The notes beneath the pieces were generated by a model that had not been told where the DNA came from, ran no database searches, and was given only the letters and a program-made list of their open reading frames with translations. From a virus: a stretch of DNA of 64,000 nt. The position numbers and the translations under genes are program-made. Of the stretch, positions 1 to 13,044 are shown piece after piece. The stretch lies in UHGV virus genome UHGV-1550212, one strand, 5' to 3'. Position 1 is the stretch's first letter. Every line of letters begins with the position of its first letter.

Positions 1-646
1 CAATTACATCGTGGCCAATACCTGACATGGGCTCTGGCTCAGGTTCCGGTTCAGGTTCCGGTTCAGGTTCCGGTTCAGGCTCCGGTTCAGGTTCCGGTTC
101 AGGTTCCGGTTCAGGTTCCGGTTCCGGTTCCGGTTCAGGTTCCGGTTCAGGTTCCGGCTTGGGCTTTGATGAATAGTTAAACATCTTGTGAATCCATTTG
201 CACCACCATTTGTGACATGCATGTGCGCCATCATGATAATACGCTTGCAGCTCCATTGGAATTGCATGATATGCTTTGTCATGTGACATACCTTTGAATA
301 TTCGCAAGTACACATAGCACAAGCAATATGCAATGTAGTACATAAGCGGTGATGCAAGCAGCCACCACCAGCTAAGCACATTGCATGCTGCAAGCACAAT
401 AAGTACAAGCAACGTCGCAAGTGTTACAAAGATGAATTGCTTTGCATGCACAGCTTCATGCTTCAAGGTCTCAGAGTATCTGCTAAGTGTGTCATCATAT
501 GACTTATCACTTCTTATGAAGCACATTGCACACAACGACATTGCATAATAATGTGAAAATGGAATGCATGGCTGGTCGATGACAAGCATTGGTCCAGCAA
601 ACCACAGTCGCCACTGAGATTTATTTGGCAGTGTTGCAGTTTTCAT
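1..646 (-). CDS. HExxH metallopeptidase-like membrane protein with C-terminal (Glu-Pro)n linker; partial, 3' end beyond window
   Basis: ATG at 646..644 (minus), frame open to position 1, so absent from ORF track. Translation [19 protein letters not shown]...[24 protein letters not shown] (HEAVH = HExxH, then hydrophobic segments), ending in ~20 EP dipeptides. Confidence 0.55.
31..158 (-). repeat. Tandem GGTTCC/GGTTCA hexamer array (~21 units) encoding alternating Glu-Pro
   Basis: Direct reading; period 6/12 nt. The track ORF 4..420 (NLNRNL...) is the wrong frame of this array. Confidence 0.9.
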
Positions 647-672
647 AAATGATGTTTATTGTTTGATGATGA

Positions 673-700
673 AGACTGAAGAGCCGAAGCTCTTCAGTCT
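673..700 (-). terminator. 12-bp perfect stem hairpin, UUCG tetraloop on sense strand, after sheath gene stop
   Basis: AGACTGAAGAGC-CGAA-GCTCTTCAGTCT on plus strand; no clear U-tract, so may be an RNA stability element rather than a terminator. Confidence 0.35.
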
Positions 701-709
701 GTCAATTTG

Positions 710-3547
710 CTACTCAGCAGATGCACCTTGCAGTGACAATGTTGTACGATGTACGCCAATTCGAATGCCTTGAGCATTGATGATTTCAGTGTCAAGTACA
801 ATGAATCCGCGAGCAATCGTTTCATCATCATTGTTGCTGCTATCGCAGACATTCGTGTACGAAACTGCGCCACCGGCTGCAACGATGCCATCCATGAAGT
901 TGTCTGCTTTTGTTTTGACCTGCAAACGAACATTTGCAGTGTTTCGTTTGTACTGAGCAGACTTCAGATATGGCTCAATGTTGTCAGCGACATAGATGAG
1001 CAACTCAAGATTTTCAATGTAGCTGAATGCGCTGGTGTAAGCTACTTGTGCAGAACGAGATGTCAGCATTGTGATGACGCCTTGGTCTGAACGAGCGAGC
1101 ATGTTCCAACCTGCAGGTTCAAGGTCATCCATATCAGACCCTTCACCTTGCGAGACAATCATGTCAATGTCGGTTACACCAACACCAGACAGTGGCCACT
1201 CATCACCAGCAACGACGTCAAAGACATGCTTGCCTGCTTCTGTATGCTTTCTCATGAAGACATTCGACAAGATACCTGTTGCAGGAATCGTCATATCATC
1301 AATGCCATCATTGTAGCGAACATTGGCTACATATGTGATGAACGGTGCGCCATCAGTTTGACCTGCGAAGCTGAACAACTTGCTGTATGGTTTATCGGTG
1401 TTACCACCTGCAGCACAGTACTTAGACTCAATTGGGTCACCTGCATTGTCCTTAAAGTACGGGTCAGTTGAGCGGAACAAGTCATACTTGGTTGGCAGAG
1501 CAGAGAATGCGATTGCACGTTTTGAATCATTGCAAATCTTTGCAAACTCGTACTTTTGATTTGCTGCAATGTATGTCTTGAATGGGTCAACTACATAACG
1601 CCATTGACATTGATTGTGGTCCATCAAGCTACGATAAACGCCGCCTGAAATGAGAGCTTGCAGTACTTCTGTCTGACGTGCAGATGTGCCATCAACAAAT
1701 TGAGTTGCACGAAGAGCTACACCATGTAGATATGCGCCCTTGAAGAACTTAACTTGGTCAACAAGCTTCGTCAATGACCAAACAGACGCCTGCGAGGCGT
1801 ACTTCATCATTGAGCCATCTGCAAGTTCAAATTCGCCTTCAGCACCTGCAGCTTTGTATGCCAATGCACCAGTGAATTGATATTCAATCAGCACTTTGTT
1901 TTCTGCAAATGCGTCGTAGACATTCTTCTTCTCAAGCGGCGACAAATCAGCTTCAGTGATTGTGATTGGCATACCGCCATACTTGAGTGGCTTGTCTAAT
2001 GGCAGGCCATTTGAATCATATTCAACAAGGTCACCGCCATATGAAATTGTCTCACCTGCAGCTCTTGCTTTACGAGCTTTCGTTGATGAAGTTTCTGCAT
2101 CTGCAGACTCTTCGCCGCCAATTATGACTGTTGAGCCTTGTGGATAGATGAAGTTGCCCTTTGCATCCTGAGGGAATGCTACCTTTGCACCTGATTCGTT
2201 AGTGTACATTGGAATGCCGCCTTCCTTGCCAATGACAGGAACTGCGCGATATTCAGCTACAACTGCGCGACTTGTACAACGTACTGGCGAGCCATCTGCA
2301 CCAATAAAGATGTCGCCAAGCGAAATTGGCAACACTGGTGCAACAAATGAAGTCTTTGAAGCTTCACCTGGCTGCACAAATGGAACCATCACATTAACAA
2401 ACTCAGATGACACGAAGTCCTTGAGCTGTTCTTTTGTGATTGCGACATCTGTTGCTGTTGGCGTGCAGTCAATCTTTTCAGGATTGATGTCAGTTGACGG
2501 ACGAGCCATGCCAAGATATTGATGCGTAGCATCATCAGCAAACAGTGGACCTGCAGCGTCATCTACAGAAATGTAGTTCGAACCAAAGATGTCCACTGCA
2601 CGTTGGAAACGAGCATCTTCGATATCATTCGAATTGTAGAACTCGTCAACCTTGTCAGGGTCAATCTTACACATGATACCCGTCGTGTCTGACACTGCAT
2701 TCACAGCAGTTTCCAATGACAACTTGTTACCATTGATATCAAGCAAGTCAGGAATCAATGAGCCAGATACACGACCCATGTAGCCAGATGCAGCAAGCTT
2801 TGACAATGCCTCAGGACCATACATGCCATCAACTTGTGCACGGATACCATCCTTTGTGAAGTACTTGCCATATACAGTCGAACCTGCAAGTGACTCATAG
2901 TTCGTCAGCTTTTCAGAGAAGAACCAAACGTCAACCATATAGTCTGACACAAGGTCATTGCAATTCACGCCAGGCACATACATTGATGGGAAGCGGTCTT
3001 GAACTGACTTGATATCATAATCATAGCCAGTCAATGTCGTCGGCGTAATGAAGATTGTTGCAGACTTGTTTGTAAGTGTTGAGAAGTTGAGCAGTTGTAC
3101 AGGGTCAGTGCCAACTGCATTGAGCAGATTCAATGGCTCAGCTTTCCAGAAGTTTGATGTATCATAGACATCCTTAAATGGAACGTCTACAGGCGAGCCA
3201 TCTTCTCCTGAGCTGTTTGCAGCAAAAGTCACTCGTGACAACACATCGCTATCATTGAATGAGCGCAAGTTCAACACAAGAATTGGGCTTGTTGCAAGCA
3301 TTTGCTCTGCAATGAGACCAGCGAAACAGCCGGCACGCTCCAAACGCTTGTCACGTTGACCGAAAATTTCATGCAGCTGGTCTGCATCTTCAACAAGCGC
3401 GGCGCGATTGACCGGACCGTTCTTCCACTGGCCAGGCAGCAATCGAAGTGTTTGAGCGGGCAGTGAGTCAAGGCGACTTGCGTCAATGAACAGACGATAT
3501 GTCCCGACTGACTTGAACCGTTCAAATAAAGAAGTGTTATTTGCCAT
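710..3547 (-). CDS. Tail sheath-like structural protein (T4 gp18-like), 945 aa
   Basis: ORF 710..3631 trimmed to ATG at 3547 (MANNTSLFERF; ATG at 3628 also possible). C-terminus ...YTNVCDSSNNDDETIARGFIVLDTEI resembles the conserved sheath C-terminus as recalled; large size, structural neighbourhood. Confidence 0.5.
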   Translation of the reverse strand: MANNTSLFERFKSVGTYRLFIDASRLDSLPAQTLRLLPGQWKNGPVNRAALVEDADQLHEIFGQRDKRLERAGCFAGLIAEQMLATSPILVLNLRSFNDSDVLSRVTFAANSSGEDGSPVDVPFKDVYDTSNFWKAEPLNLLNAVGTDPVQLLNFSTLTNKSATIFITPTTLTGYDYDIKSVQDRFPSMYVPGVNCNDLVSDYMVDVWFFSEKLTNYESLAGSTVYGKYFTKDGIRAQVDGMYGPEALSKLAASGYMGRVSGSLIPDLLDINGNKLSLETAVNAVSDTTGIMCKIDPDKVDEFYNSNDIEDARFQRAVDIFGSNYISVDDAAGPLFADDATHQYLGMARPSTDINPEKIDCTPTATDVAITKEQLKDFVSSEFVNVMVPFVQPGEASKTSFVAPVLPISLGDIFIGADGSPVRCTSRAVVAEYRAVPVIGKEGGIPMYTNESGAKVAFPQDAKGNFIYPQGSTVIIGGEESADAETSSTKARKARAAGETISYGGDLVEYDSNGLPLDKPLKYGGMPITITEADLSPLEKKNVYDAFAENKVLIEYQFTGALAYKAAGAEGEFELADGSMMKYASQASVWSLTKLVDQVKFFKGAYLHGVALRATQFVDGTSARQTEVLQALISGGVYRSLMDHNQCQWRYVVDPFKTYIAANQKYEFAKICNDSKRAIAFSALPTKYDLFRSTDPYFKDNAGDPIESKYCAAGGNTDKPYSKLFSFAGQTDGAPFITYVANVRYNDGIDDMTIPATGILSNVFMRKHTEAGKHVFDVVAGDEWPLSGVGVTDIDMIVSQGEGSDMDDLEPAGWNMLARSDQGVITMLTSRSAQVAYTSAFSYIENLELLIYVADNIEPYLKSAQYKRNTANVRLQVKTKADNFMDGIVAAGGAVSYTNVCDSSNNDDETIARGFIVLDTEIINAQGIRIGVHRTTLSLQGASAE

Positions 3548-3653
3548 GTTCGTTATCGTATTTGTTGTAAATTGTGAAATGTTGCTTTGTTTGATTATAA
3601 CTTGATATATGTATGTATATGATGACATCAAACATGTTGTTGACCAAAATCAA

Positions 3654-3704: not shown

Positions 3705-6700
3705 TTAGCCACGAATCAAGTCAACCAAGCGTTGCTGTTCAGGAGTCAATGAAGACTTTCCGCTGCCATCAATGTTTTCGTTAACGAAACCGACTGGCTG
3801 CTTAGTCGAATATGACTTGATTGCAGCCCAGTTACGTGAACGATAGAATGCTGCGACATCTGACTCATTTACGAAAGTGCGAACTGCTGCCTGAGTAGCA
3901 ATCAATGACTTCTGTTCAGGAGTCAAGCTTTCATAAATGTACTTGTATGCTGTTGGCATATGCTTCAGATACAATGGTGTATGGTCAATTGGCTGCAGGT
4001 TCTCATCCAAGACTGCTACACCAGCAGCATCATAGCGAGTTGCAAGCTGCTTTGTTTGACGACGCAATGCAGCAATTTCATGCTTGATGCTTGTCAAGCA
4101 TTCATCAGTTGCTTGTGCGCCAAGATATGTGCGAAGCATATCAGACAGCATCTTCTGATTTGCATCGGTCAAATCACCTGCAACTTCAATGCCAGTCAGC
4201 TGGCCATCTTTGCTGATGACTACAGAAATTGTAGAACCGTCGCGTTCAACTGTGCGGAAGTCAAAGTCATCGTATGACTTATCCTTAAGGACAGCTTCAC
4301 GAATATTGTCATCTACGCCTTCATTGACCATGCTCATGCATTCCTCAACATCTACGTCAAGTCCAAGCTCTTCTGCAGTTTCAGCAATCTTTTCTGCAAG
4401 CTGAGCTTTATTCTCAACTTTGTCAAGGTCTGCTGCATCTGATACAGCATCGACAAGTTCATCTGCCTGTGCACGAGTAATCGTTGAAGCATCAACAAGG
4501 CCATCAATGATTTGCTCTACATCTGCAGGTGTCGGCTTGTTGTCTTCTGCTGCTTCATTGATAAACTTGGCAGTCTTTGGCTTGTAGCTAAGCTTGCCCT
4601 CATTGACCATCTCATCCTGCAATTGTGCAGCGATGTATGCAATTAGCAATGACTTGTTGGCTTCAAGTTCATCGACTGCTTCAGCAGACTTTTGAGCTTT
4701 GATGAGTTCATCGTAAGCTGCTGCAACTTTGTCATCCATCGTAGACTTGTCAGGGTCAATGTTTTTGATGCATGTCTTGACAATATCATCCTGATAGAAC
4801 TTGTCAATGATTGATTTGTCTGTGTCAGAGTATGTTGCATATAACTTGTCTGCGACAATTGATTCATTGACAATCTTGCCTGGCTCAGATGCAGGAACAA
4901 GAGTCCACTTACCATCAACTTCTGCAACAATGCCTGAAGTCGATTCGCCATAAGTGACTGTTAGACGAGTGCCTGCTTCATTGTTGTCAATTGTGTTGAC
5001 GACTGCTTCGAATTCATTACCATCAGCGTCATAGATTTTGATGCTGTCACCGACAGCAGCTTCATCTACTGGTGCTTCGAAGAACTCTTTGACAAAGTTC
5101 TGAACATCAACGGGCAGACTGTCATATGGCTGTGATGCATAGTACTCTGAGTCAGCATCAAGGTAATTCTTTGAAAGCAGCCAAGCTTTTCGAGTAGCAA
5201 CATCTGCAGCATTCCAAGCATCGACTGACTCATCGCAGTCATCGACAAGTGCAAGATACTCATGGTCTTTCTTGTCATCAAAACGAAGAGTAATCTTTTG
5301 TTCGGGCTTGCCAGCAGGCCAAACTTCGACTTCAATTTCTGTAGTGCCTGCAACATTTTTGACTGTGCCTACAACAATCTTGTCGCCTTTGTTGATGCCA
5401 TTAGACATGTCGTATGGTGCTTCAATAGATTCATCTGTCGACTGAGCTCGAATTGCTGCAGCAATAGCATTACGAGATTCATTGTCGAACATCTCCCATG
5501 TAGCATTCGCAGCATCTTCTACACCAATCTTGTCTTTGCCAACCTGCTCAATCAACTGATTGCGGTCAGCTACTGAAGCATTGTACCACCAGTCTGCAGC
5601 AGTGTCAGATGCTTCATTGACAAATGCATTGAGCAATGCAGTCTGAACGTTATCAGGCAACTTGTCAAAGTCAACAAGCTCTACGTCATCTGCAATATTT
5701 GCTTGCTTTGCTGTTGCTTTACGGCCATCTGCATCAGACTTATTCCAGTCATCAATGAATGCCTGTTCAGCAGCAGATTCATCAAGCGCTTTGACAGTTT
5801 CATATCGACCGTCATACAGCATGTACTTATCGCCTTCTTTGATGGCTACAGACTCCTTGCCATTGTACTTGAATGACACTTTGTCACCATTGAAGCCGGT
5901 CAATTCAGCTGTGATTTTATCGCCATTCTTGTCATACACTTCAACTGTCTGCTCTTCATCAATGTTCAAGTGCTTCTTGAGTGCATCTACAAGTTCTTTG
6001 CCAAGAGCGTCTTCATTGTCATGGGCTTGCTGGAAGCAATCTTCATCTGACTTGTCAGGCTGAACAGCTTTCAATGCTGTTGCCCGATTAAGCATTGACA
6101 TCGTGCCCCAGATTGACATGAAGCTTTTGCCCTCATTGTCTTGTGCTTCGGCTTCGTCAATTGCATCAATGTCTTTCTCAAGCATTGCATGATGAGCAAT
6201 GTCGATGCCAGACCATTTCGTCTTTGCATTATATGGCAAACCAATATGCTTCGACAAAATTGACTGACGTTGGTCATCTGTGAATGAATCCCAAGCTTCG
6301 CCAAGTGTTGCATGCTTTGCTTCATCAGCAGCAAATTCTGTTTCAATCTTAAGTTTGTGGTCCTTGTCAATCAGTTGCCACTTGGCATTTGGACGATAGA
6401 ACTCAGACAATGACAGCTTGTCAAGAATGACTTTGCGTTCGTCATCTGACAATTCGTCCCACTTGTTGTCAGCAGATTCATCGATGTTGACGAGTTCTTT
6501 CTCAATGAGATTCTTGTCAAGCATTGCATCAATGATTGGCTGCTGGGCTTCTGCTGGAATGTCTTTGAACGACTTAATTGCAATGACAGCGTCTTTGTCA
6601 TCAACTTTAGCAGCTTCAACAATTTCTGTCTTCACTTCATCAGTCAAAGCGCCCCAAGCAGCATCGAGATAATCAAAGTTGAGAGCTTCATCACATTCAA

Positions 6701-7820
6701 CAATGCCATACTGCTTTGCAATGTCATTGTGCTTGTCAAGATTGCTGTTGAGTTCAGCTTCAATTGCTGCTTTGATGTCATCAATTGACTTATCTTCAAC
6801 TTCAAGCTCAAGAGCTTTTGCAAGTTCAGTCAATGCTGCATCATCAAGCTTGCTAATGTCATAAGGCTTAGCATCTTCATTTGTGAAGTCAATGCCAAGC
6901 AAAGACATTGCTTGCTTCTTGTTTTCTTCTGAGAGTGCATCGAATGCAGTTGCAAGACCGACATCGGTGTAGTCGCACCCAACTTCGTCAAGTAATGCTT
7001 CGACTTTCTGGATGTTTTCTACGCCAACTTCGTTAGCATCAGCATTGTTGTATGCCTCAACAAAACGTGATTGGTTTGTCATGGTAGTGAAATCTTCTAT
7101 TGATTCGTTTATGAGTTGCTGTTTGAGTGCATCCAATGATGCTGAGCCAATCAATGCATCAGGGAATAGCTTCTGCAACATACCTGTACGTGCAAGCTCA
7201 ATCAATTGGAGCATCAATGAGTTTGGCGAGTCTTCGTCATCTACAGATTCACAAATGAGAGTGTCTTTTGATTCATTAACTGAACCGACAAGATTGAACT
7301 CTGCATTCGAAAAGCCTGGCTGTGCAACCAAATCAAATGTCACGATTTTGAGAAGCTGAACTCTGCCAGTAGTTGGATTGACTACGCCAAGGGCGCGACT
7401 TGAAATGAACAATGGCGAACCTGCTGTAACAATTGCCCATGCAATGCGACCTGCAGGCGTATCAAGAATTGTAATGTAGCCTTCAAAACGTCGTTTTTCA
7501 GGATTCCATTCAATACTGTCCAATCTGTGGCTTACGTTTCCATAACGTACAGTACGTCGCTTAACATGTTCAAGTTCGCCAAGAAGTCGCTTTGCTTTAA
7601 TTGCAGGTTGCAATGCCTGTACTTGAGCAAAGTAATTCTCAAAGTCATACGTGCGCCCATTTTCGTTTTTCTGGTCCATGTATGCATACACGCCAAAAAG
7701 ACGACCAAGTGCGCCGCTTGGCACATGAGAATCTTCTGCTTCAACTACAAACTGACAATCTGCGCGGCTTTCAAGCATAAGTGAGGCTTCCCTGCCTTTG
7801 TACTTATATGACTTTGCCAT
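3705..7820 (-). CDS. Prohead core protease-like N-terminal domain (T4 gp21-like, ~210 aa) fused to ~1160-aa highly acidic low-complexity region (scaffold/internal-protein-like)
   Basis: First ATG at 7820 (MAKSYKYK). N-terminus ...NGRTYDFENYF...LLGELEHV...GYITILDTPAGRIA...FISSRALG matches prohead protease motifs as recalled; remainder is Asp/Glu-rich throughout. Confidence 0.6.
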   Translation of the reverse strand: MAKSYKYKGREASLMLESRADCQFVVEAEDSHVPSGALGRLFGVYAYMDQKNENGRTYDFENYFAQVQALQPAIKAKRLLGELEHVKRRTVRYGNVSHRLDSIEWNPEKRRFEGYITILDTPAGRIAWAIVTAGSPLFISSRALGVVNPTTGRVQLLKIVTFDLVAQPGFSNAEFNLVGSVNESKDTLICESVDDEDSPNSLMLQLIELARTGMLQKLFPDALIGSASLDALKQQLINESIEDFTTMTNQSRFVEAYNNADANEVGVENIQKVEALLDEVGCDYTDVGLATAFDALSEENKKQAMSLLGIDFTNEDAKPYDISKLDDAALTELAKALELEVEDKSIDDIKAAIEAELNSNLDKHNDIAKQYGIVECDEALNFDYLDAAWGALTDEVKTEIVEAAKVDDKDAVIAIKSFKDIPAEAQQPIIDAMLDKNLIEKELVNIDESADNKWDELSDDERKVILDKLSLSEFYRPNAKWQLIDKDHKLKIETEFAADEAKHATLGEAWDSFTDDQRQSILSKHIGLPYNAKTKWSGIDIAHHAMLEKDIDAIDEAEAQDNEGKSFMSIWGTMSMLNRATALKAVQPDKSDEDCFQQAHDNEDALGKELVDALKKHLNIDEEQTVEVYDKNGDKITAELTGFNGDKVSFKYNGKESVAIKEGDKYMLYDGRYETVKALDESAAEQAFIDDWNKSDADGRKATAKQANIADDVELVDFDKLPDNVQTALLNAFVNEASDTAADWWYNASVADRNQLIEQVGKDKIGVEDAANATWEMFDNESRNAIAAAIRAQSTDESIEAPYDMSNGINKGDKIVVGTVKNVAGTTEIEVEVWPAGKPEQKITLRFDDKKDHEYLALVDDCDESVDAWNAADVATRKAWLLSKNYLDADSEYYASQPYDSLPVDVQNFVKEFFEAPVDEAAVGDSIKIYDADGNEFEAVVNTIDNNEAGTRLTVTYGESTSGIVAEVDGKWTLVPASEPGKIVNESIVADKLYATYSDTDKSIIDKFYQDDIVKTCIKNIDPDKSTMDDKVAAAYDELIKAQKSAEAVDELEANKSLLIAYIAAQLQDEMVNEGKLSYKPKTAKFINEAAEDNKPTPADVEQIIDGLVDASTITRAQADELVDAVSDAADLDKVENKAQLAEKIAETAEELGLDVDVEECMSMVNEGVDDNIREAVLKDKSYDDFDFRTVERDGSTISVVISKDGQLTGIEVAGDLTDANQKMLSDMLRTYLGAQATDECLTSIKHEIAALRRQTKQLATRYDAAGVAVLDENLQPIDHTPLYLKHMPTAYKYIYESLTPEQKSLIATQAAVRTFVNESDVAAFYRSRNWAAIKSYSTKQPVGFVNENIDGSGKSSLTPEQQRLVDLIRG

Positions 7821-7898
7821 ATTTGAATTGTGTTTGAAAGTTTGCAAATTTTTGTTGTTATTGATTATATATGCAAGGCAGACTTGTGTGTTGAAAAA

Positions 7899-7927
7899 TT
7901 GCAAAATTTCAGTTATGTGTACATAAC
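7899..7927. promoter_or_regulatory. Divergent intergenic region with TTGCAA box and inverted repeat GTTATGT-GT-ACATAAC
   Basis: Between minus gene start 7820 and plus RuvC-like start 7954; 7-bp arms around a TGTACA core at 7912-7927. Confidence 0.3.
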
Positions 7928-7953: not shown

Positions 7954-8622
7954 ATGTCAACAAACAATCATGGCAAGCTCAGATTGCTTGAGCTCAAAGA
8001 AGCACAGCCATATGACACGCTCAAAATTGGCATTGACGTATCAGTAGATGCTACTGGCATGTGCATGATATTTGGCAAAACTGTTGCGCTGTTCAAATTT
8101 ACGCCGCACTTGCCACCAGAAGATGACAGTTCAGATGATGTGAATTTTGTGCAGTTCAACAAAATCTATCTGCAAACATCATCTTCTGCAAGAGAACGCT
8201 CAAAAATGCATACTCGACACACACTTGCAAACAAGATTGTTGACGCGATTGATATGTTCATGCAGGAAATTTGGCCGAATAGCCCAGCAAACATTCAAAT
8301 TGTTACAGAAGGGTCTGCATATGGCTATGCCGCACACAACTCTAACAGCTTGGTAGAACTTGCTGAATTTAGAAGCGTGATTTTAGAAAGAGTCTATCAT
8401 CGTTGGCCACTCGGCACGCATCTAAGTCTTGACGTTATTGCGCCAAAATCATTGAAGAAACATGCAACCGGTGACGGCAAAGCAGACAAACTAAAGATGA
8501 TTGAAGCTGCAATTGCTAAGTTGACACACATTCATTGGGCAGGCAAAATTGACGATGAATGCGATGCATTGCATCTTTGTCTGTATGAGCCATTAAGCAA
8601 TCCTGAACCACGACTTTGGTGA
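7954..8622 (+). CDS. RuvC-like Holliday junction resolvase
   Basis: LKIGIDVSVDATG (Asp motif I), IVTEGSAYGYA (catalytic Glu), DDECDALHLCLY (C-terminal Asp/His motif); 222 aa. Confidence 0.65.
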   Translation: MSTNNHGKLRLLELKEAQPYDTLKIGIDVSVDATGMCMIFGKTVALFKFTPHLPPEDDSSDDVNFVQFNKIYLQTSSSARERSKMHTRHTLANKIVDAIDMFMQEIWPNSPANIQIVTEGSAYGYAAHNSNSLVELAEFRSVILERVYHRWPLGTHLSLDVIAPKSLKKHATGDGKADKLKMIEAAIAKLTHIHWAGKIDDECDALHLCLYEPLSNPEPRLW

Positions 8623-9167: not shown

Positions 9168-10961
9168 TCAATTTTGTGTTGCAACGTCATCAGTCTTGTT
9201 ATCAACTGGCTCATCGTCGACATGTGTATCAACATCAATGCCAGAAGCTGCAGCAAGTGAAACATCATTAGCGACGCCTTGTTGTTCAAGTTGTTGTTGA
9301 GCTTGCTTTGTTTGAATTGCGACAAGTCTTGCAGCTTCCATTGCAAGCTTAAGATTCTCTTGAAGTTCGATATCAAGCTGTTCAGCATTAGCTTGCATGT
9401 CTTCTTTGCTTAAGCCAAGATACTTGTTGATAAGCCAATTGCTTGAGAAGAATGGGCGTTCAGTATCAGACATGTTAAGTGAACGAACAAGTGAACTGCG
9501 AATGTCTTCGATTGTATGAATACGCTTCTGAAGCAATGTGAGCTCCATTTGCGTCTGGAAATGATTGTATCTATTGAATTTGAGTTTTAGCGCATTCAAA
9601 ACTTCATTGTCGCCAATGTAGTTATTGTTTTTGATGCACATCAAAACATACACAGGCTTCAATATGATTGCAATGCCAAATCTACGCATCAAAGCTGAAA
9701 TAAAGATTGCAAAACGACGCTCATCACGCTGAATTGACTCTTCAGAAACATTCCACATGCCACCGCCATCATCGAATCTGCTTAGAGGCAGCTTTGACAG
9801 ACGTTGTAAGTTATTGCGGAAATATGTGACTGCTGAAGTATCAGATAAGTCAGGCATGCCTGTGCCAATTGTTTGAATGTTGGGTTTGCCTGCATTAGTG
9901 TCAGCCATCCAAAATTCGCTATTGAAAGGCACAGATGCTTCGCCATTAACTTGGAGTTCGCCGGTTTGATTGTCGAATTCAATTTTTTCGTGGTACTTAT
10001 TCATTGCTTTACGCAATGTTTCCTGTGCAGCAGCTTTCAGTTTACCGCCAGTAGGAATTGTGATAAGTGAACGAAAACGAGAAGCTGTCGTAGCATATGC
10101 AATGCGACTTCGCTCCAAAATCCTGAGCAAGTTGAATGCACGAACAAGACGCTCAAAATATGACATAGACCCAACCATGTCATCGTTCCACTGCAAATAT
10201 GCTACTTGCGAATCAAGCAAGTTGATTTTTTCTGAGTTGTTAGACACAAATGCTGGTGCTTTGACATCAAACATTGTATGTGTCTTGAACATATCTTGTT
10301 GAGACTTATCATACTGCCAGAAGAACATTTCACCCTTCTTCATAGGCGTCAATGCAAATGCATTCAACTTTTTGATGCCAACAATATCAGTCGGCTCATC
10401 TGCATTATCAAACACAATCTCATAGCCAAGTCTGCCTCGTACAAGATATTCACGCAACAATGCTCTAACATCTTGTTTGCGAGGTTCAGAGTTCAACCCA
10501 TTGAATGCATACATCAAATAGACTTGCTTGAATGCATCCATAAAGTCATCTTTGATTGTCTGCTTTGCTGTGTCGTCTATCTCAAGTTTATCGATGTCAC
10601 AAAAATCAGGCTCGCAAAAGAAATTACTATCGGAATTGAACACGATGCACTCATCAATCATGCGGTCAAGAATGTCGTCGAGTTCCGGTTCTGCACTTAA
10701 GATGTCATATTTTTTGGCTCGAAGATAACTTGTCAATCCAAAAAGATTCTTTTTAGGTGACTCTTTCTGATTGAACACGTCATCAGTAGACAACACAACA
10801 ACTTCTTGGTCATTGATGTTATGCTCACCTGTATATGCTGCTTTCTCCAAATCTGCATCAGACCCAGACTTGTGCACATTCAATTGCTGCAATGGACTGT
10901 CTTTCGGAATTGAGCGTAATGCATCAGTTCCCAGATATGTTCGTTTGGTCTTTTTAGCCAT
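9168..10961 (-). CDS. Portal-like protein (T4 gp20-like), 597 aa
   Basis: ATG at 10961; ...SEFWMADTNAGKP...YFRNNLQRLSKLPLSRFDD resembles portal core motif (VPLSRI region) as recalled. Confidence 0.55.
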   Translation of the reverse strand: MAKKTKRTYLGTDALRSIPKDSPLQQLNVHKSGSDADLEKAAYTGEHNINDQEVVVLSTDDVFNQKESPKKNLFGLTSYLRAKKYDILSAEPELDDILDRMIDECIVFNSDSNFFCEPDFCDIDKLEIDDTAKQTIKDDFMDAFKQVYLMYAFNGLNSEPRKQDVRALLREYLVRGRLGYEIVFDNADEPTDIVGIKKLNAFALTPMKKGEMFFWQYDKSQQDMFKTHTMFDVKAPAFVSNNSEKINLLDSQVAYLQWNDDMVGSMSYFERLVRAFNLLRILERSRIAYATTASRFRSLITIPTGGKLKAAAQETLRKAMNKYHEKIEFDNQTGELQVNGEASVPFNSEFWMADTNAGKPNIQTIGTGMPDLSDTSAVTYFRNNLQRLSKLPLSRFDDGGGMWNVSEESIQRDERRFAIFISALMRRFGIAIILKPVYVLMCIKNNNYIGDNEVLNALKLKFNRYNHFQTQMELTLLQKRIHTIEDIRSSLVRSLNMSDTERPFFSSNWLINKYLGLSKEDMQANAEQLDIELQENLKLAMEAARLVAIQTKQAQQQLEQQGVANDVSLAAASGIDVDTHVDDEPVDNKTDDVATQN

Positions 10962-10981: not shown

Positions 10982-12220
10982 CTATACACGTCTTGTCAAT
11001 TTGACATGACCGCAGTCATCTGCAAGCAGTTTAACATGACCGCAGTCATCTGCAAGCAGTTTAACATGACCGCAGTCATAAACTTTGACGAAGCCTGCAT
11101 CAATCATAGTTTGCTCATCATGATTGCAGTCAAGCACATGTGTATGAGTTTTCATATTGTACCAATGCAAGCCGATGTAAAAGTCAGTCTTGTGATATGC
11201 GTCAGTATATAATCGTGGGTCATCTATAGACAAATCAAGTTCGACGCAGTCAGCAGTCTGCAGTTGTTCTGTGTCAGTTAGCAATGATTTGACAAGCTTG
11301 ACTACAGCATCAAATGACATCCAATCAAATACAGTGATGCATCTATAGCCATGTTGCATAGCTGTGCAACATTTGTCAAAATGCGTAGTTGATGCAATTG
11401 GCTTGTTGACTGTAGAACGACCAGTAGCAAAATCAAATGCAAATGTGCTGTTATGCGTAAATGACGGATTGACATCAATTAGCAAATTGTCATATCGCAA
11501 ATCAAATGCGTAGCAATCTACGTCATGTTCATATTCAAAATCAACACCAGTATGCTCAAGTAGCATATCATGTAACAAGACGTTTGGCTTTGTAATGATT
11601 TTGCCATTTGCAAGTCTGCACTTCTGAGTTAAACAATGCCAAGGCACGCCATATCGTTCAAGTGTAGTGTTGCTAATCTTCTGCAAATTGCCAAAACCGC
11701 TGCCATAGCGTAATTGCTTTGTGACTGTTTGCTGTGCAACATTACCATTAGCATGACCAAACTTGTTGATGTTTGTTTGCTTGCGCTTAGCATTTGCAGT
11801 TGCAATATCAACAGATTCAAGTGACTCAAGAAATTTTGACATGTCGCCAAGCCCATTGCCATATAGTTGACGTTTAGTGTCAACAACTTTTGTCATGTTC
11901 CAGTGCTTGTAGCCATATCGAGCTTCTTTTGTCGCAAATGCTTTGTCATAGTTGCCAAAGCCTGCATGACCATATCGTTCAACTTTTGTTGCAGCAATTT
12001 TGTCTGAGACTTCTTTAAGCTGATGTTTGTATTCAACGCCAAACTTGCGCAAATTTGATATGCGAATGTTGAACACTCGTTTGACTTTTGTATGCGTAGA
12101 GCCTTTGTCAAGCTTTGCATATGGAATTTGTGCAAGTGCAGCGTCTCTTTCATCTTCAAGCTCTCTTATTCGAGCTTCAAGTGCATCACCAGCCAAAACT
12201 TCTATGCGTATAGTCTGCAT
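10982..12220 (-). CDS. Repeat/nuclease-like protein: coiled-coil N-terminus, 6-7 degenerate TK-x-(E/A)RYG repeats, C-terminal LLIDVNP..THNS domain; candidate free-standing homing endonuclease
   Basis: 412 aa; GDALEARIRELEDERD, repeated ...TKVERYG...TKEARYG...RQLYG...TLERYG; paralog of 16405..17604; C-terminal 30 aa is a triplicated decapeptide. Confidence 0.6.
   Translation of the reverse strand: MQTIRIEVLAGDALEARIRELEDERDAALAQIPYAKLDKGSTHTKVKRVFNIRISNLRKFGVEYKHQLKEVSDKIAATKVERYGHAGFGNYDKAFATKEARYGYKHWNMTKVVDTKRQLYGNGLGDMSKFLESLESVDIATANAKRKQTNINKFGHANGNVAQQTVTKQLRYGSGFGNLQKISNTTLERYGVPWHCLTQKCRLANGKIITKPNVLLHDMLLEHTGVDFEYEHDVDCYAFDLRYDNLLIDVNPSFTHNSTFAFDFATGRSTVNKPIASTTHFDKCCTAMQHGYRCITVFDWMSFDAVVKLVKSLLTDTEQLQTADCVELDLSIDDPRLYTDAYHKTDFYIGLHWYNMKTHTHVLDCNHDEQTMIDAGFVKVYDCGHVKLLADDCGHVKLLADDCGHVKLTRRV
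11004..11079 (-). repeat. Perfect 30-bp tandem repeat x2.5 at the 3' end of CDS 10982..12220
   Basis: Unit ACATGACCGCAGTCATCTGCAAGCAGTTTA; encodes DDCGHVKLLA x3; each unit carries inverted repeat ATGAC-CGCA-GTCAT. Confidence 0.9.
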
Positions 12221-12279: not shown

Positions 12280-13026
12280 TCAAATCATTCTGTTATCACT
12301 AACTGCAAAGTTGATATTGTTGTCTTTCAGATATTGCATGTATCGCTGAAAAATCTGGTCAGCTGTCAGTTTTTCATAATGATTCGATGGAATGAAGATT
12401 GCTTTAGACCAATCTTCATATTTGAACTCAATCAAGCCTGTCATTCGTGGTGGCAAATATGAACGAAATGCGAATGCTGCGCCATACTTTGTGACAAGTG
12501 AGCCAACTTGCTGCCATGTCATATGCACTGCAGTTTGTTCAGAACGATACATCTCGCCTTTGTATTTAGACGCAAATGCTTTGAAGACAGTCTCAATGAC
12601 AAGAAAACGAACTTCAAGAGGCAAGTGGTGCAAGTTTACACCCATGCTGACTACTGAGCCGTCCTTTGCAATATAATACGACAATGACAAAATTAACGGC
12701 GCGCAGTCGTACCAATCAAGTACATCTGCATGCTTTGGATTGTCATACACAAACATGTACAATTTCCCAGGTTCCATGTACTTTCTGCGAATCTGCACAT
12801 CAGGATTCGTAGCATATGATTTGAACCATGCAGCAGCTTCTCTACCACCGTTTGGCATTTTGTACCATGGATTGCTTCGAATTTCTTTGCCAAGGTCATA
12901 TTGACCGGACTTTACCAAACGATTGAATAATCGTTGTGCTGCAGTCAATATTGAACGTCCTACTGACTTCGCTTTGTCAATAAAAGACGTTTTTGCTTGT
13001 GTATCTAATGAATTAAACTTGGGCAT
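12280..13026 (-). CDS. Hypothetical protein (248 aa)
   Basis: Track ORF 12280..13041 trimmed to ATG (MPKFNSL). Confidence 0.6.
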   Translation of the reverse strand: MPKFNSLDTQAKTSFIDKAKSVGRSILTAAQRLFNRLVKSGQYDLGKEIRSNPWYKMPNGGREAAAWFKSYATNPDVQIRRKYMEPGKLYMFVYDNPKHADVLDWYDCAPLILSLSYYIAKDGSVVSMGVNLHHLPLEVRFLVIETVFKAFASKYKGEMYRSEQTAVHMTWQQVGSLVTKYGAAFAFRSYLPPRMTGLIEFKYEDWSKAIFIPSNHYEKLTADQIFQRYMQYLKDNNINFAVSDNRMI

Positions 13027-13044
13027 ATCTTTATGCAGCAATTA

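Follow-up and report, generated by a model that had tools for sequence, protein, structure and literature searches.

The left end of a 64,000-nucleotide (nt) stretch of the virus genome UHGV-1550212 (the window, here always the whole stretch) cuts through a minus-strand open reading frame (ORF) that carries an HExxH motif, hydrophobic segments and a long run of Glu-Pro dipeptides. The question that this locus raises is what kind of protein such a combination specifies. A preliminary description of the sequence had proposed a membrane-anchored metallopeptidase-like protein with a linker of the periplasm-spanning TonB type. Here we find that the gene encodes a member of a widespread phage and bacterial family, and we consider it moderately likely that the product is a membrane-anchored, zinc-dependent protease of ~230 amino acids (aa) with its active site on the cytoplasmic side, an accessory role linked to the envelope or to lysis, and a tail that serves as a spacer.

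The ORF at the window edge is a genuine gene

Translation from the ATG at 646-644 gives 215 stop-free codons (window 646..2, minus strand), and the frame is still open at the window edge. The program-made ORF list omits ORFs that run off an end, which is why this one is unlisted; the earlier claim of an unlisted minus-strand ORF downstream of the sheath gene and running past the edge is borne out by this frame, which starts 63 nt after the sheath stop. The parts of the gene are as follows.

2..646, minus strand: partial ORF for a small membrane HExxH protein; 215 codons, with ~16 more beyond the edge, as judged from complete alleles
590..646, minus strand: extra N-terminus, 19 codons without a counterpart in most homologues
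167..589, minus strand: conserved PHROG 15610 core (aa 20-160), with a predicted beta-sheet, HExxH helix, membrane hairpin, Glu helix and C-terminal amphipathic helix
446..460, minus strand: HEAVH (aa 63-67; H63, E64, H67), proposed zinc-binding and catalytic motif, followed by the invariant Q70
377..439, minus strand: predicted membrane helix 1 (aa 70-90), into which the HExxH helix runs without a break
296..370, minus strand: predicted membrane helix 2 (aa 93-117), with the WWW turn at its start and the invariant Y107
236..283, minus strand: two predicted short helices (aa 122-137) with Y126 and the motif ME(132)LQA(135)Y, E132 being the proposed third zinc ligand
29..166, minus strand: (K/E-P) x23 repeat (aa 161-206), a length-variable, acidic, proline-rich spacer
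2..28, minus strand: start of a conserved acidic C-terminal peptide (MSGIGHDVI...)

Two metagenome alleles, 96% identical, complete the gene. One is P0001 (209 aa, 96% identical to the window protein), which is encoded on the ENA metagenome contig L001, and the other, of 249 aa, lies on the 175.6-kb IMG/VR contig L014. Outside the repeat, codons 20-160 of the window copy and of L001 differ by 23 synonymous and 4 non-synonymous changes, indicating that the gene is under purifying selection. In addition, the HExxH residues are kept in at least 87 of the 88 homologues in A2, on which the counts below are based (A1 and A2 are our family alignments; A2 has 88 members at ~28% identity to the window protein), and the HEAVH-containing ORF is therefore beyond chance. 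The ORF at 646..2 is a genuine, selectively maintained gene.

The start codon could be either ATG 646 or ATG 589 as judged from the alignments. The 19 N-terminal residues are extra relative to the homologues, most of which start at a Met aligned with M20, and this makes ATG 589 a candidate start. The upstream ATG at 646 is kept in both L001 and L014, and the AlphaFold model described below places a beta strand at aa 13-17, with a mean predicted local distance difference test score (pLDDT) of 84 over residues 11-20.

The core belongs to a widespread Bacteroidota-associated family

By profile comparison, the core of the window protein (aa 20-160) belongs to PHROG 15610, which is annotated as "protease". 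The phrog_15610 profile matches the window core at E = 6.7e-8 over profile positions 1-48 of 105, and it matches all 88 aligned homologues, with a best E of 3.3e-34. A hidden Markov model (HMM) built from A2, of which the window sequence is itself a member, gives E = 3.8e-36 for the window ORF; neither this HMM nor a repeat check revealed a second family copy or another dipeptide repeat within the window. No model in Pfam or NCBIfam recognises the window protein. When 1.8 billion cluster representatives were searched exhaustively with HMMER, 97 relatives were returned at E < 1e-3, nearly all of them 125-155 aa long and beginning at the residue aligned with window M20, and most of them without a tail.

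The family signature reads M..I.N..IPF.G..A....F.R ... NHExIHxxQxxE, after which come a hydrophobic helix, (S)WWW, another helix that has an invariant Tyr, and AYxxISFExEAY. E64, H67, Q70 and Y107 are conserved in 88 of the 88 members, H63 and E132 in 87, Y126 in 86 and A135 in 83, and the window protein retains every near-invariant residue of the family. Three acidic positions are changed in the window protein, namely position 73, which is F (E/D in 80 of the 88), position 110, which is C (E/D in 63), and position 134, which is Q (E in 83).

Members of PHROG 15610 have the motifs HExxHxxQ, (S)WWW, Y107 and AYxxxxFExEAY, as well as both membrane helices, in common with the window core. A typical member has 105-155 aa and ends after the core, whereas the window protein has 19 more N-terminal residues, a (K/E-P)n spacer of 46 residues and an acidic end of 25 residues; it is without the acidic residues at 73, 110 and 134, and it is encoded between the sheath gene and a putative tube gene, not near lysis or replication genes. 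The window gene is thus a member of a catalogued but uncharacterised family with a new architecture, which comprises the extra N-terminus, the EP arm, the sheath-tube location and the three lost acidic residues.

The distribution of the family is broad. A megablast search with the region and a tblastn search with the window protein against the phage collection gave no match. When family members were used as tblastn queries, the gene was found in crAss-like phages and in many cultured phages, nearly all of which infect Bacteroides, Phocaeicola, Parabacteroides or Riemerella. A motif-based scan, for which a 20-sequence sub-alignment of the family was used, confirmed at least 595 loci in each of two collections, IMG/VR and the GTDB species genomes; of the 80 genome loci listed for GTDB, nearly all belong to Bacteroidota. 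The family has already been noticed and named by similarity, as depositors' labels include 'putative zincin superfamily protease' (crAss-like phage cr3_1), 'protease' (Riemerella phage RAP44) and 'periplasmic metallopeptidase' (csAssE-Sib). Literature searches yielded no study of what PHROG 15610 proteins do, and we found no solved structure of any family relative.

The predicted fold and charge pattern place the HExxH helix at the cytoplasmic face of a membrane hairpin

AlphaFold2 with the 88-sequence alignment gave a model with a pLDDT of 84.9 and a predicted template modelling score of 0.79, whereas a single-sequence model (pLDDT 54) was too poor for use. Four short strands (aa 13-17, 20-25, 35-38 and 41-45) precede the HExxH helix (aa 54-87) in the model. 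HEAVH lies near the start of this helix, which runs on as the first hydrophobic helix and is modelled with a pLDDT of more than 90 from residue 61 onwards. The chain makes a tight turn at S92-W95 and enters the helix 93-117, after which come the short helices 122-128 and 130-137 and, at the C-terminal end, an amphipathic helix; E132, within the FExEA motif, sits on the helix 130-137. As modelled, the build would correspond to a zincin upper subdomain and a glutamate helix that are parted by a membrane hairpin. The preliminary description was right that HEAVH is present and had placed it within hydrophobic segments; the model instead puts it at the start of the helix that continues as membrane helix 1.

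Both hydrophobic helices are predicted to cross the membrane. The Kyte-Doolittle value of helix 1 reaches 2.66 over 19 residues, and helix 2 is modelled with a pLDDT of 95-98. Across the 88 members, the mean number of Lys and Arg residues is 6.9 in the N-terminal part, 0.03 in the inter-helix loop and 7.1 in the C-terminal part, and the loop itself is ~4 residues long and essentially uncharged. By the positive-inside rule, this charge pattern predicts an N-in/C-in topology with two membrane helices, in which both termini, the HExxH/E132 site and the tail are cytoplasmic. We did not find a signal peptide in the window protein. The initial idea of a membrane-anchored HExxH metallopeptidase-like protein stands as far as motif, family and predicted fold are concerned.

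The Glu-Pro tail is a short spacer of variable length

Residues 161-206 consist of 23 unbroken X-Pro dipeptides (46 residues), of which the first two are KP and the remaining 21 are EP; the initial count of ~20 EP repeats was therefore right about the repeat and slightly off in number and composition. Tandem Repeats Finder reports the tract at 39-157 with a period of 12 nt, 9.9 copies and 96% matches. The number of dipeptides differs among the alleles, with 12 in L001, 23 in the window and 32 in L014, and all of these length differences are in frame. The interspersed KP units and the codon choices also vary among the three repeats.

In both complete alleles the protein stops 25 residues after the repeat, the MSGIGHDVI of the window copy being continued with DDPTTTEDDDKSFTVR and then a stop codon. 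This indicates that the window copy is ~16 codons short and that the full product has ~230 aa. The sole above-noise Pfam match for the tail is trypanosome procyclin (PARP; E = 3e-9, far below the curated cut-off), which has a long unbroken (EP)n tract in common with the window protein; the likeness is one of composition and implies no common origin.

The tail bears directly on the proposal that this is a TonB-like or BlaR1-TonB-type protein, in which an inner-membrane anchor would carry a Glu-Pro linker across the periplasm to the outer membrane or the virion. TonB proteins typically have EP/KP-rich spacers, and the window protein resembles them in having a membrane anchor followed by an extended spacer rich in Glu-Pro and Lys-Pro, here a 46-residue repeat. 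However, TonB has a single-helix anchor where the window protein has a two-helix zincin-like domain, the window spacer is nearly pure EP with only 2 KP and is predicted to be cytoplasmic, and the C-terminal domain of TonB is not present. TonB_C (PF03544) gave no Pfam match at E <= 1 in the complete 249-aa allele, and the 209- and 249-aa alleles hold nothing after the core other than the repeat and the 25-residue end, so that the completed gene is devoid of an envelope-spanning domain. Moreover, the charge pattern puts the C-terminal part in the cytoplasm and most family members are tail-free. We consider a TonB-like protein very improbable and discard the periplasm-spanning claim; from the allele sequences, the Glu-Pro tail is a short, slippage-prone spacer of variable length and not part of a TonB-type envelope-spanning protein.

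The resemblance to known membrane peptidases is one of layout

If the protein is not of the TonB type, the core could still be related to known membrane peptidases. The order of elements is like that of the M56 proteins BlaR1 and MecR1, where BlaR1 has HEYAH, a hydrophobic hairpin and EVEAD and the family has HExxH, a hairpin and ExEAY; the active site of BlaR1 is at the cytoplasmic face, as is predicted for the family. BlaR1 differs in that it has an extracellular penicillin-binding sensor and four membrane helices rather than two, and the window protein is about one quarter of its size. The M48 proteins (HtpX, Ste24, BepA) have a similar order as well, with HEISH, two membrane helices and EFHAD (E-x-x-A) in HtpX, although their N-terminal region is much larger than in the window protein family. 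The active site of HtpX faces the cytoplasm.

Searches for homology gave a different picture. A sequence profile search of the whole PDB with the family profile found nothing at E <= 10. The top Foldseek match in the PDB was BlaR1 (8exq_A), which is non-significant at E = 3.6, with M1 aminopeptidases next. In BFVD, many entries labelled SprT-like, IrrE-like or 'metallopeptidase' were matched beside the family's own members, none of them at an E of 1 or less. Single members gave scattered sub-threshold Pfam matches to SprT-like, eCIS_core, Tox-MPTase4 and M56, the last of which (PF05569) was touched by one of the 88 members at a below-threshold E of 0.0048; M48 (PF01435) matched neither the window protein nor any of the 88 members. 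With hhalign, the family profile did not match residues 152-302 of BlaR1 (Prob 0.3), and it aligned with Escherichia coli HtpX over 12 columns round HExxH (Prob 0.2), both of which are weak tests with a single-sequence target. The BlaR1 sequence used here matches PDB 8exp exactly. A homologue search with its protease region gave near-identical staphylococcal fragments only and hence no diverse M56 profile (a tblastn search of this region against plasmids gave matches that were ~96% from Staphylococcus), and a phmmer search of the PDB with HtpX gave too few sequences for an M48 profile.

In these searches, neither the sequence nor the fold significantly matched M48, M56 (BlaR1) or a solved zincin, and for this reason the resemblance to M48 and M56 is one of layout only. 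The suggested likeness to BlaR1 holds for the order of elements and fails for homology. By analogy, the protein probably works like an M48/M56-type membrane gluzincin while being filed in neither family.

The Pfam matches also raise the alternative of a membrane-bound metal enzyme that is not a peptidase, such as a histidine-box lipid-modifying enzyme. The commonest weak match is the fatty acid desaturase family (FA_desaturase), which was hit by 11 of the 88 members and by the family consensus sequence (E = 0.0045). All of the matches of single members are sub-threshold and cover only the HExxH motif and the hydrophobic helices, and the family has two invariant histidines, whereas desaturases need about eight in three boxes. 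A histidine-box desaturase was rejected on these grounds, and we regard a non-peptidase metal enzyme in general as highly unlikely.

Relatives are often encoded next to lysis or cell-wall genes

The gene neighbourhoods of family members give a first indication of the process in which they act. In Riemerella phage RAP44, the order is tail, hypothetical, 'protease', holin, hypothetical, endolysin, and in temperate Bacteroidota phages and prophages (L007 and L008) it is homologue, X, GH19. Among ~30 non-redundant IMG/VR loci, the genes up to three positions downstream include GH19 (three loci), SLT (three), M15 (one) and a holin (one), and several endolysin-labelled PHROGs were also matched near family members. 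In bacteria, a Peptidase_S13 (PBP4-type) gene follows the family member in 15 of 75 non-redundant loci, all from Prevotellaceae, Muribaculaceae and other Bacteroidales. In 12 of these 15 cases the two genes adjoin or overlap each other, in five by a 4-nt ATGA-type overlap, an arrangement that suggests an operon with a cell-wall enzyme. Representative loci are given below.

L141 3001-4797, and also L112, L115, L118, L163 and ten others: family member upstream of a PBP4-type D-Ala-D-Ala carboxypeptidase gene (Peptidase_S13, E = 1e-59)
L038 4161-7627, and ~15 near-identical IMG/VR loci: abundant crAss-like group with a 104-aa member between an endonuclease-like gene and genes like those for a DNA polymerase processivity factor and an integrase

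As relatives often adjoin endolysin, holin or PBP4-type genes, we infer a link to the control of the cell envelope or of lysis. These same neighbours could be read in two other ways. First, the enzyme could have its catalytic side in the periplasm and act there on peptidoglycan stem peptides or on periplasmic cell-wall enzymes, since the products of the neighbouring genes, endolysins in phages and the PBP4-type S13 peptidase in Prevotellaceae and related Bacteroidales, act in that compartment; the single record that labels a member 'periplasmic metallopeptidase' points the same way. On the other hand, there is no signal peptide, and the ~7 Lys/Arg in each terminal part with almost none in the loop argue with some strength for the N-in/C-in arrangement. 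We therefore regard a periplasmic active site as unlikely.

Second, the protein could be a two-helix lysis-cassette protein of the holin, antiholin or lysis-regulator type, in which the HExxH/E site binds a metal for structure or regulation rather than for catalysis. Class II holins have two membrane helices with both termini inside, and the family, at ~135 aa, has the same predicted arrangement; endolysin genes often adjoin it, and a few members give weak matches to holin models. However, RAP44 has a separately annotated holin beside its family member, and the most conserved residues are the classic catalytic set, outside the membrane. Many members are chromosomal or far from lysis genes, and the window copy lies among structural genes with no nearby endolysin. 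A holin-type function is improbable in view of these features, and a membrane protease remains the reading that we prefer.

The window gene occupies a variable slot between sheath and tube

The source of the window is, by sequence comparison, a jumbo myovirus that is distantly related to Tenacibaculum phage pT24, Sphingomonas phage PAU and Lak phages. The features around the HExxH gene are listed here; the coding-strand order is portal, protease-domain protein, sheath, HExxH gene.

670..704, minus strand: conserved stem-loop between the sheath stop and the HExxH gene
710-3631, minus strand: tail sheath gene (973 aa), directly upstream, its stop 63 nt before ATG 646
3705-7904, minus strand: 1399-aa ORF with an N-terminal prohead-protease domain
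9171-10961: portal gene
L009 6434-9712, L002 6841-7326 and L003 6836-7936: sheath-tube slot, variable across the jumbo-phage group

The sheath was assigned from a weak Pfam match to the sheath C-terminal domain and from 25-30% identity to the sheaths of pT24, PAU and Lak phages. In L001 and L014, the next gene beyond the HExxH gene encodes a 191-aa protein that is homologous to pT24 gp133 and stands in the tail-tube position. No library names this protein (phrog_32623, unknown function), and we treat its gene as a putative tail-tube gene. Farther past the window edge, L014 has a gene for a 429-aa unknown protein and then the major head protein gene.

The slot between sheath and tube holds unrelated genes in pT24 and PAU (gp134 and gp91) and two extra genes in L009, one of them with a weak endonuclease-type match, which indicates that it is a variable insertion site. 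L009 also carries P0004, the only other long-tailed relative that we found (255 aa, 31% identical), between its sheath and tube-position genes, whose products are 49% and 64% identical, respectively, to those of the window clade. The presence of a homologue in the same slot at 49% sheath identity implies that the gene is an old resident of the jumbo-phage clade and not a recent pick-up. The suggestion of a host-derived moron is therefore broadly reasonable, the family being present in Bacteroidota chromosomes and phages and the slot being variable, except that a recent acquisition does not fit with the homologue kept in L009. The tail of P0004 is predicted to be a coiled coil, followed by KPAPEPEPDPDPE (a PEPEPDPDPE tract) and an acidic end. 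An elongated, rod-like C-terminal arm thus appears from the sequences to have been built in two different ways within the clade, as (EP)n and as a coiled coil.

These tails, gained twice, and the location of the gene inside a virion-assembly module would fit with a weakened or inactive zincin that the jumbo phages keep as a membrane anchor for the spacer and end-peptide, i.e., a tether or scaffold. F73, C110 and Q134, which replace acidic positions conserved elsewhere, are consistent with this as well. Yet H63, E64, H67, Q70, Y107, Y126 and E132 are all kept and the core is under purifying selection, so that an inactive tether seems rather improbable to us.

The stem-loop at 670..704 folds with a free energy of -22.4 kcal/mol (z = -6.6), a stability that none of 200 shuffled sequences reached. 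Its 12-bp core stem is kept in the window, L001 and L014, while the loop is UUCG in the window and L001 and CAAA in L014, and no clear U-tract follows the hairpin. It may be a terminator, an RNA-stability element or an attenuator after the highly expressed sheath gene.

Other observations concern the surrounding structural region. The first ~320 residues of the 1399-aa protein match the phrog_207 head maturation protease (E = 5e-32), and the remaining ~1000 residues form a highly acidic extension with no family match; in the L014 allele, which has 83 fewer aa, divergence is far greater over the first ~190 residues than elsewhere in the protein. Three further genes are found close to or interleaved with the portal and protease genes.

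7954-8622, plus strand: RuvC-like resolvase gene, on the strand opposite to its neighbours
10985-12220, minus strand: weak homing-endonuclease-like ORF, interleaved with the portal/protease genes
12283-13041, minus strand: DNA end protector (T4 gp2-like) gene, likewise interleaved

Across the window (1-64000), nearly all long ORFs are on the minus strand, the GC content falls from ~45% at the structural end to ~39% further along, and no tRNA genes were found in the 64,000 nt.

Proposed mechanism

The mechanism that we consider most likely from the conserved residues and the predicted fold is that of a zinc hydrolase of a minimal gluzincin type, which is probably a peptidase. The metal would be bound by H63, H67 and E132, with E64 as the proposed general base. 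A small cytoplasmic beta-sheet would precede the helix with H63-E64-x-x-H67-x-x-Q70, which enters the membrane; after a Trp-rich turn, the second helix would lead back to the helices that bear Y126 and E132. In this arrangement, the enzyme would attack a membrane-proximal substrate at the inner membrane, on its cytoplasmic face. The rod-like, acidic (E/K-P)n spacer and the conserved 25-residue acidic end-peptide, both predicted to be cytoplasmic, may form a tether or docking arm. As to its timing and role, the protein would be an accessory membrane protease that is made with the surrounding structural genes and tied to the control of the cell envelope or of lysis.

Several points weigh against this interpretation. 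The desaturase family, and not a peptidase family, is the commonest weak Pfam match. The loss of the acidic residues at 73, 110 and 134 may mean that the window protein is altered or weakened as an enzyme, as judged from the alignment. The repeats were assembled from short reads, and their lengths could in part reflect mis-assembly. In addition, the genomic contexts of the family are heterogeneous, one crAss-like group having the gene among replication genes (see L038 above), and the window has no lysis gene near the HExxH gene, which is surrounded by a T4-like structural block.

A more far-reaching version, which we put forward as doubtful, is that the family is an unclassified clan of minimal, membrane-embedded gluzincins of Bacteroidota that control cell-wall hydrolases or the timing of lysis, and that the jumbo-phage form is a tethered enzyme whose arm couples tail or virion assembly to the membrane. 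Such an enzyme might, for example, cleave a holin, an antiholin or an envelope-stress regulator from the cytoplasmic face, and its rigid spacer, either (EP)12-32 or the coiled coil of L009, might hold the acidic docking peptide 7-20 nm off the membrane.

Implications

For the window, the main value of these results is negative and clarifying. There is neither a phage TonB nor a BlaR1-TonB fusion at this locus, which instead has an accessory gene in a variable sheath-tube slot. The more useful leads are at the level of the family, a Bacteroidota-wide minimal membrane zincin, as predicted, with PBP4 or endolysin neighbours. Members of the family are very common in Bacteroidota genomes and in Bacteroidota phages from the gut and the environment, crAss-like phages included, yet neither Pfam nor NCBIfam has a model for them. 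To our knowledge, the control of lysis in Bacteroidota is poorly understood. Should the family truly be a membrane protease tied to PBP4 and endolysins, it could fill a gap in the picture of how phages time lysis in Bacteroidota.

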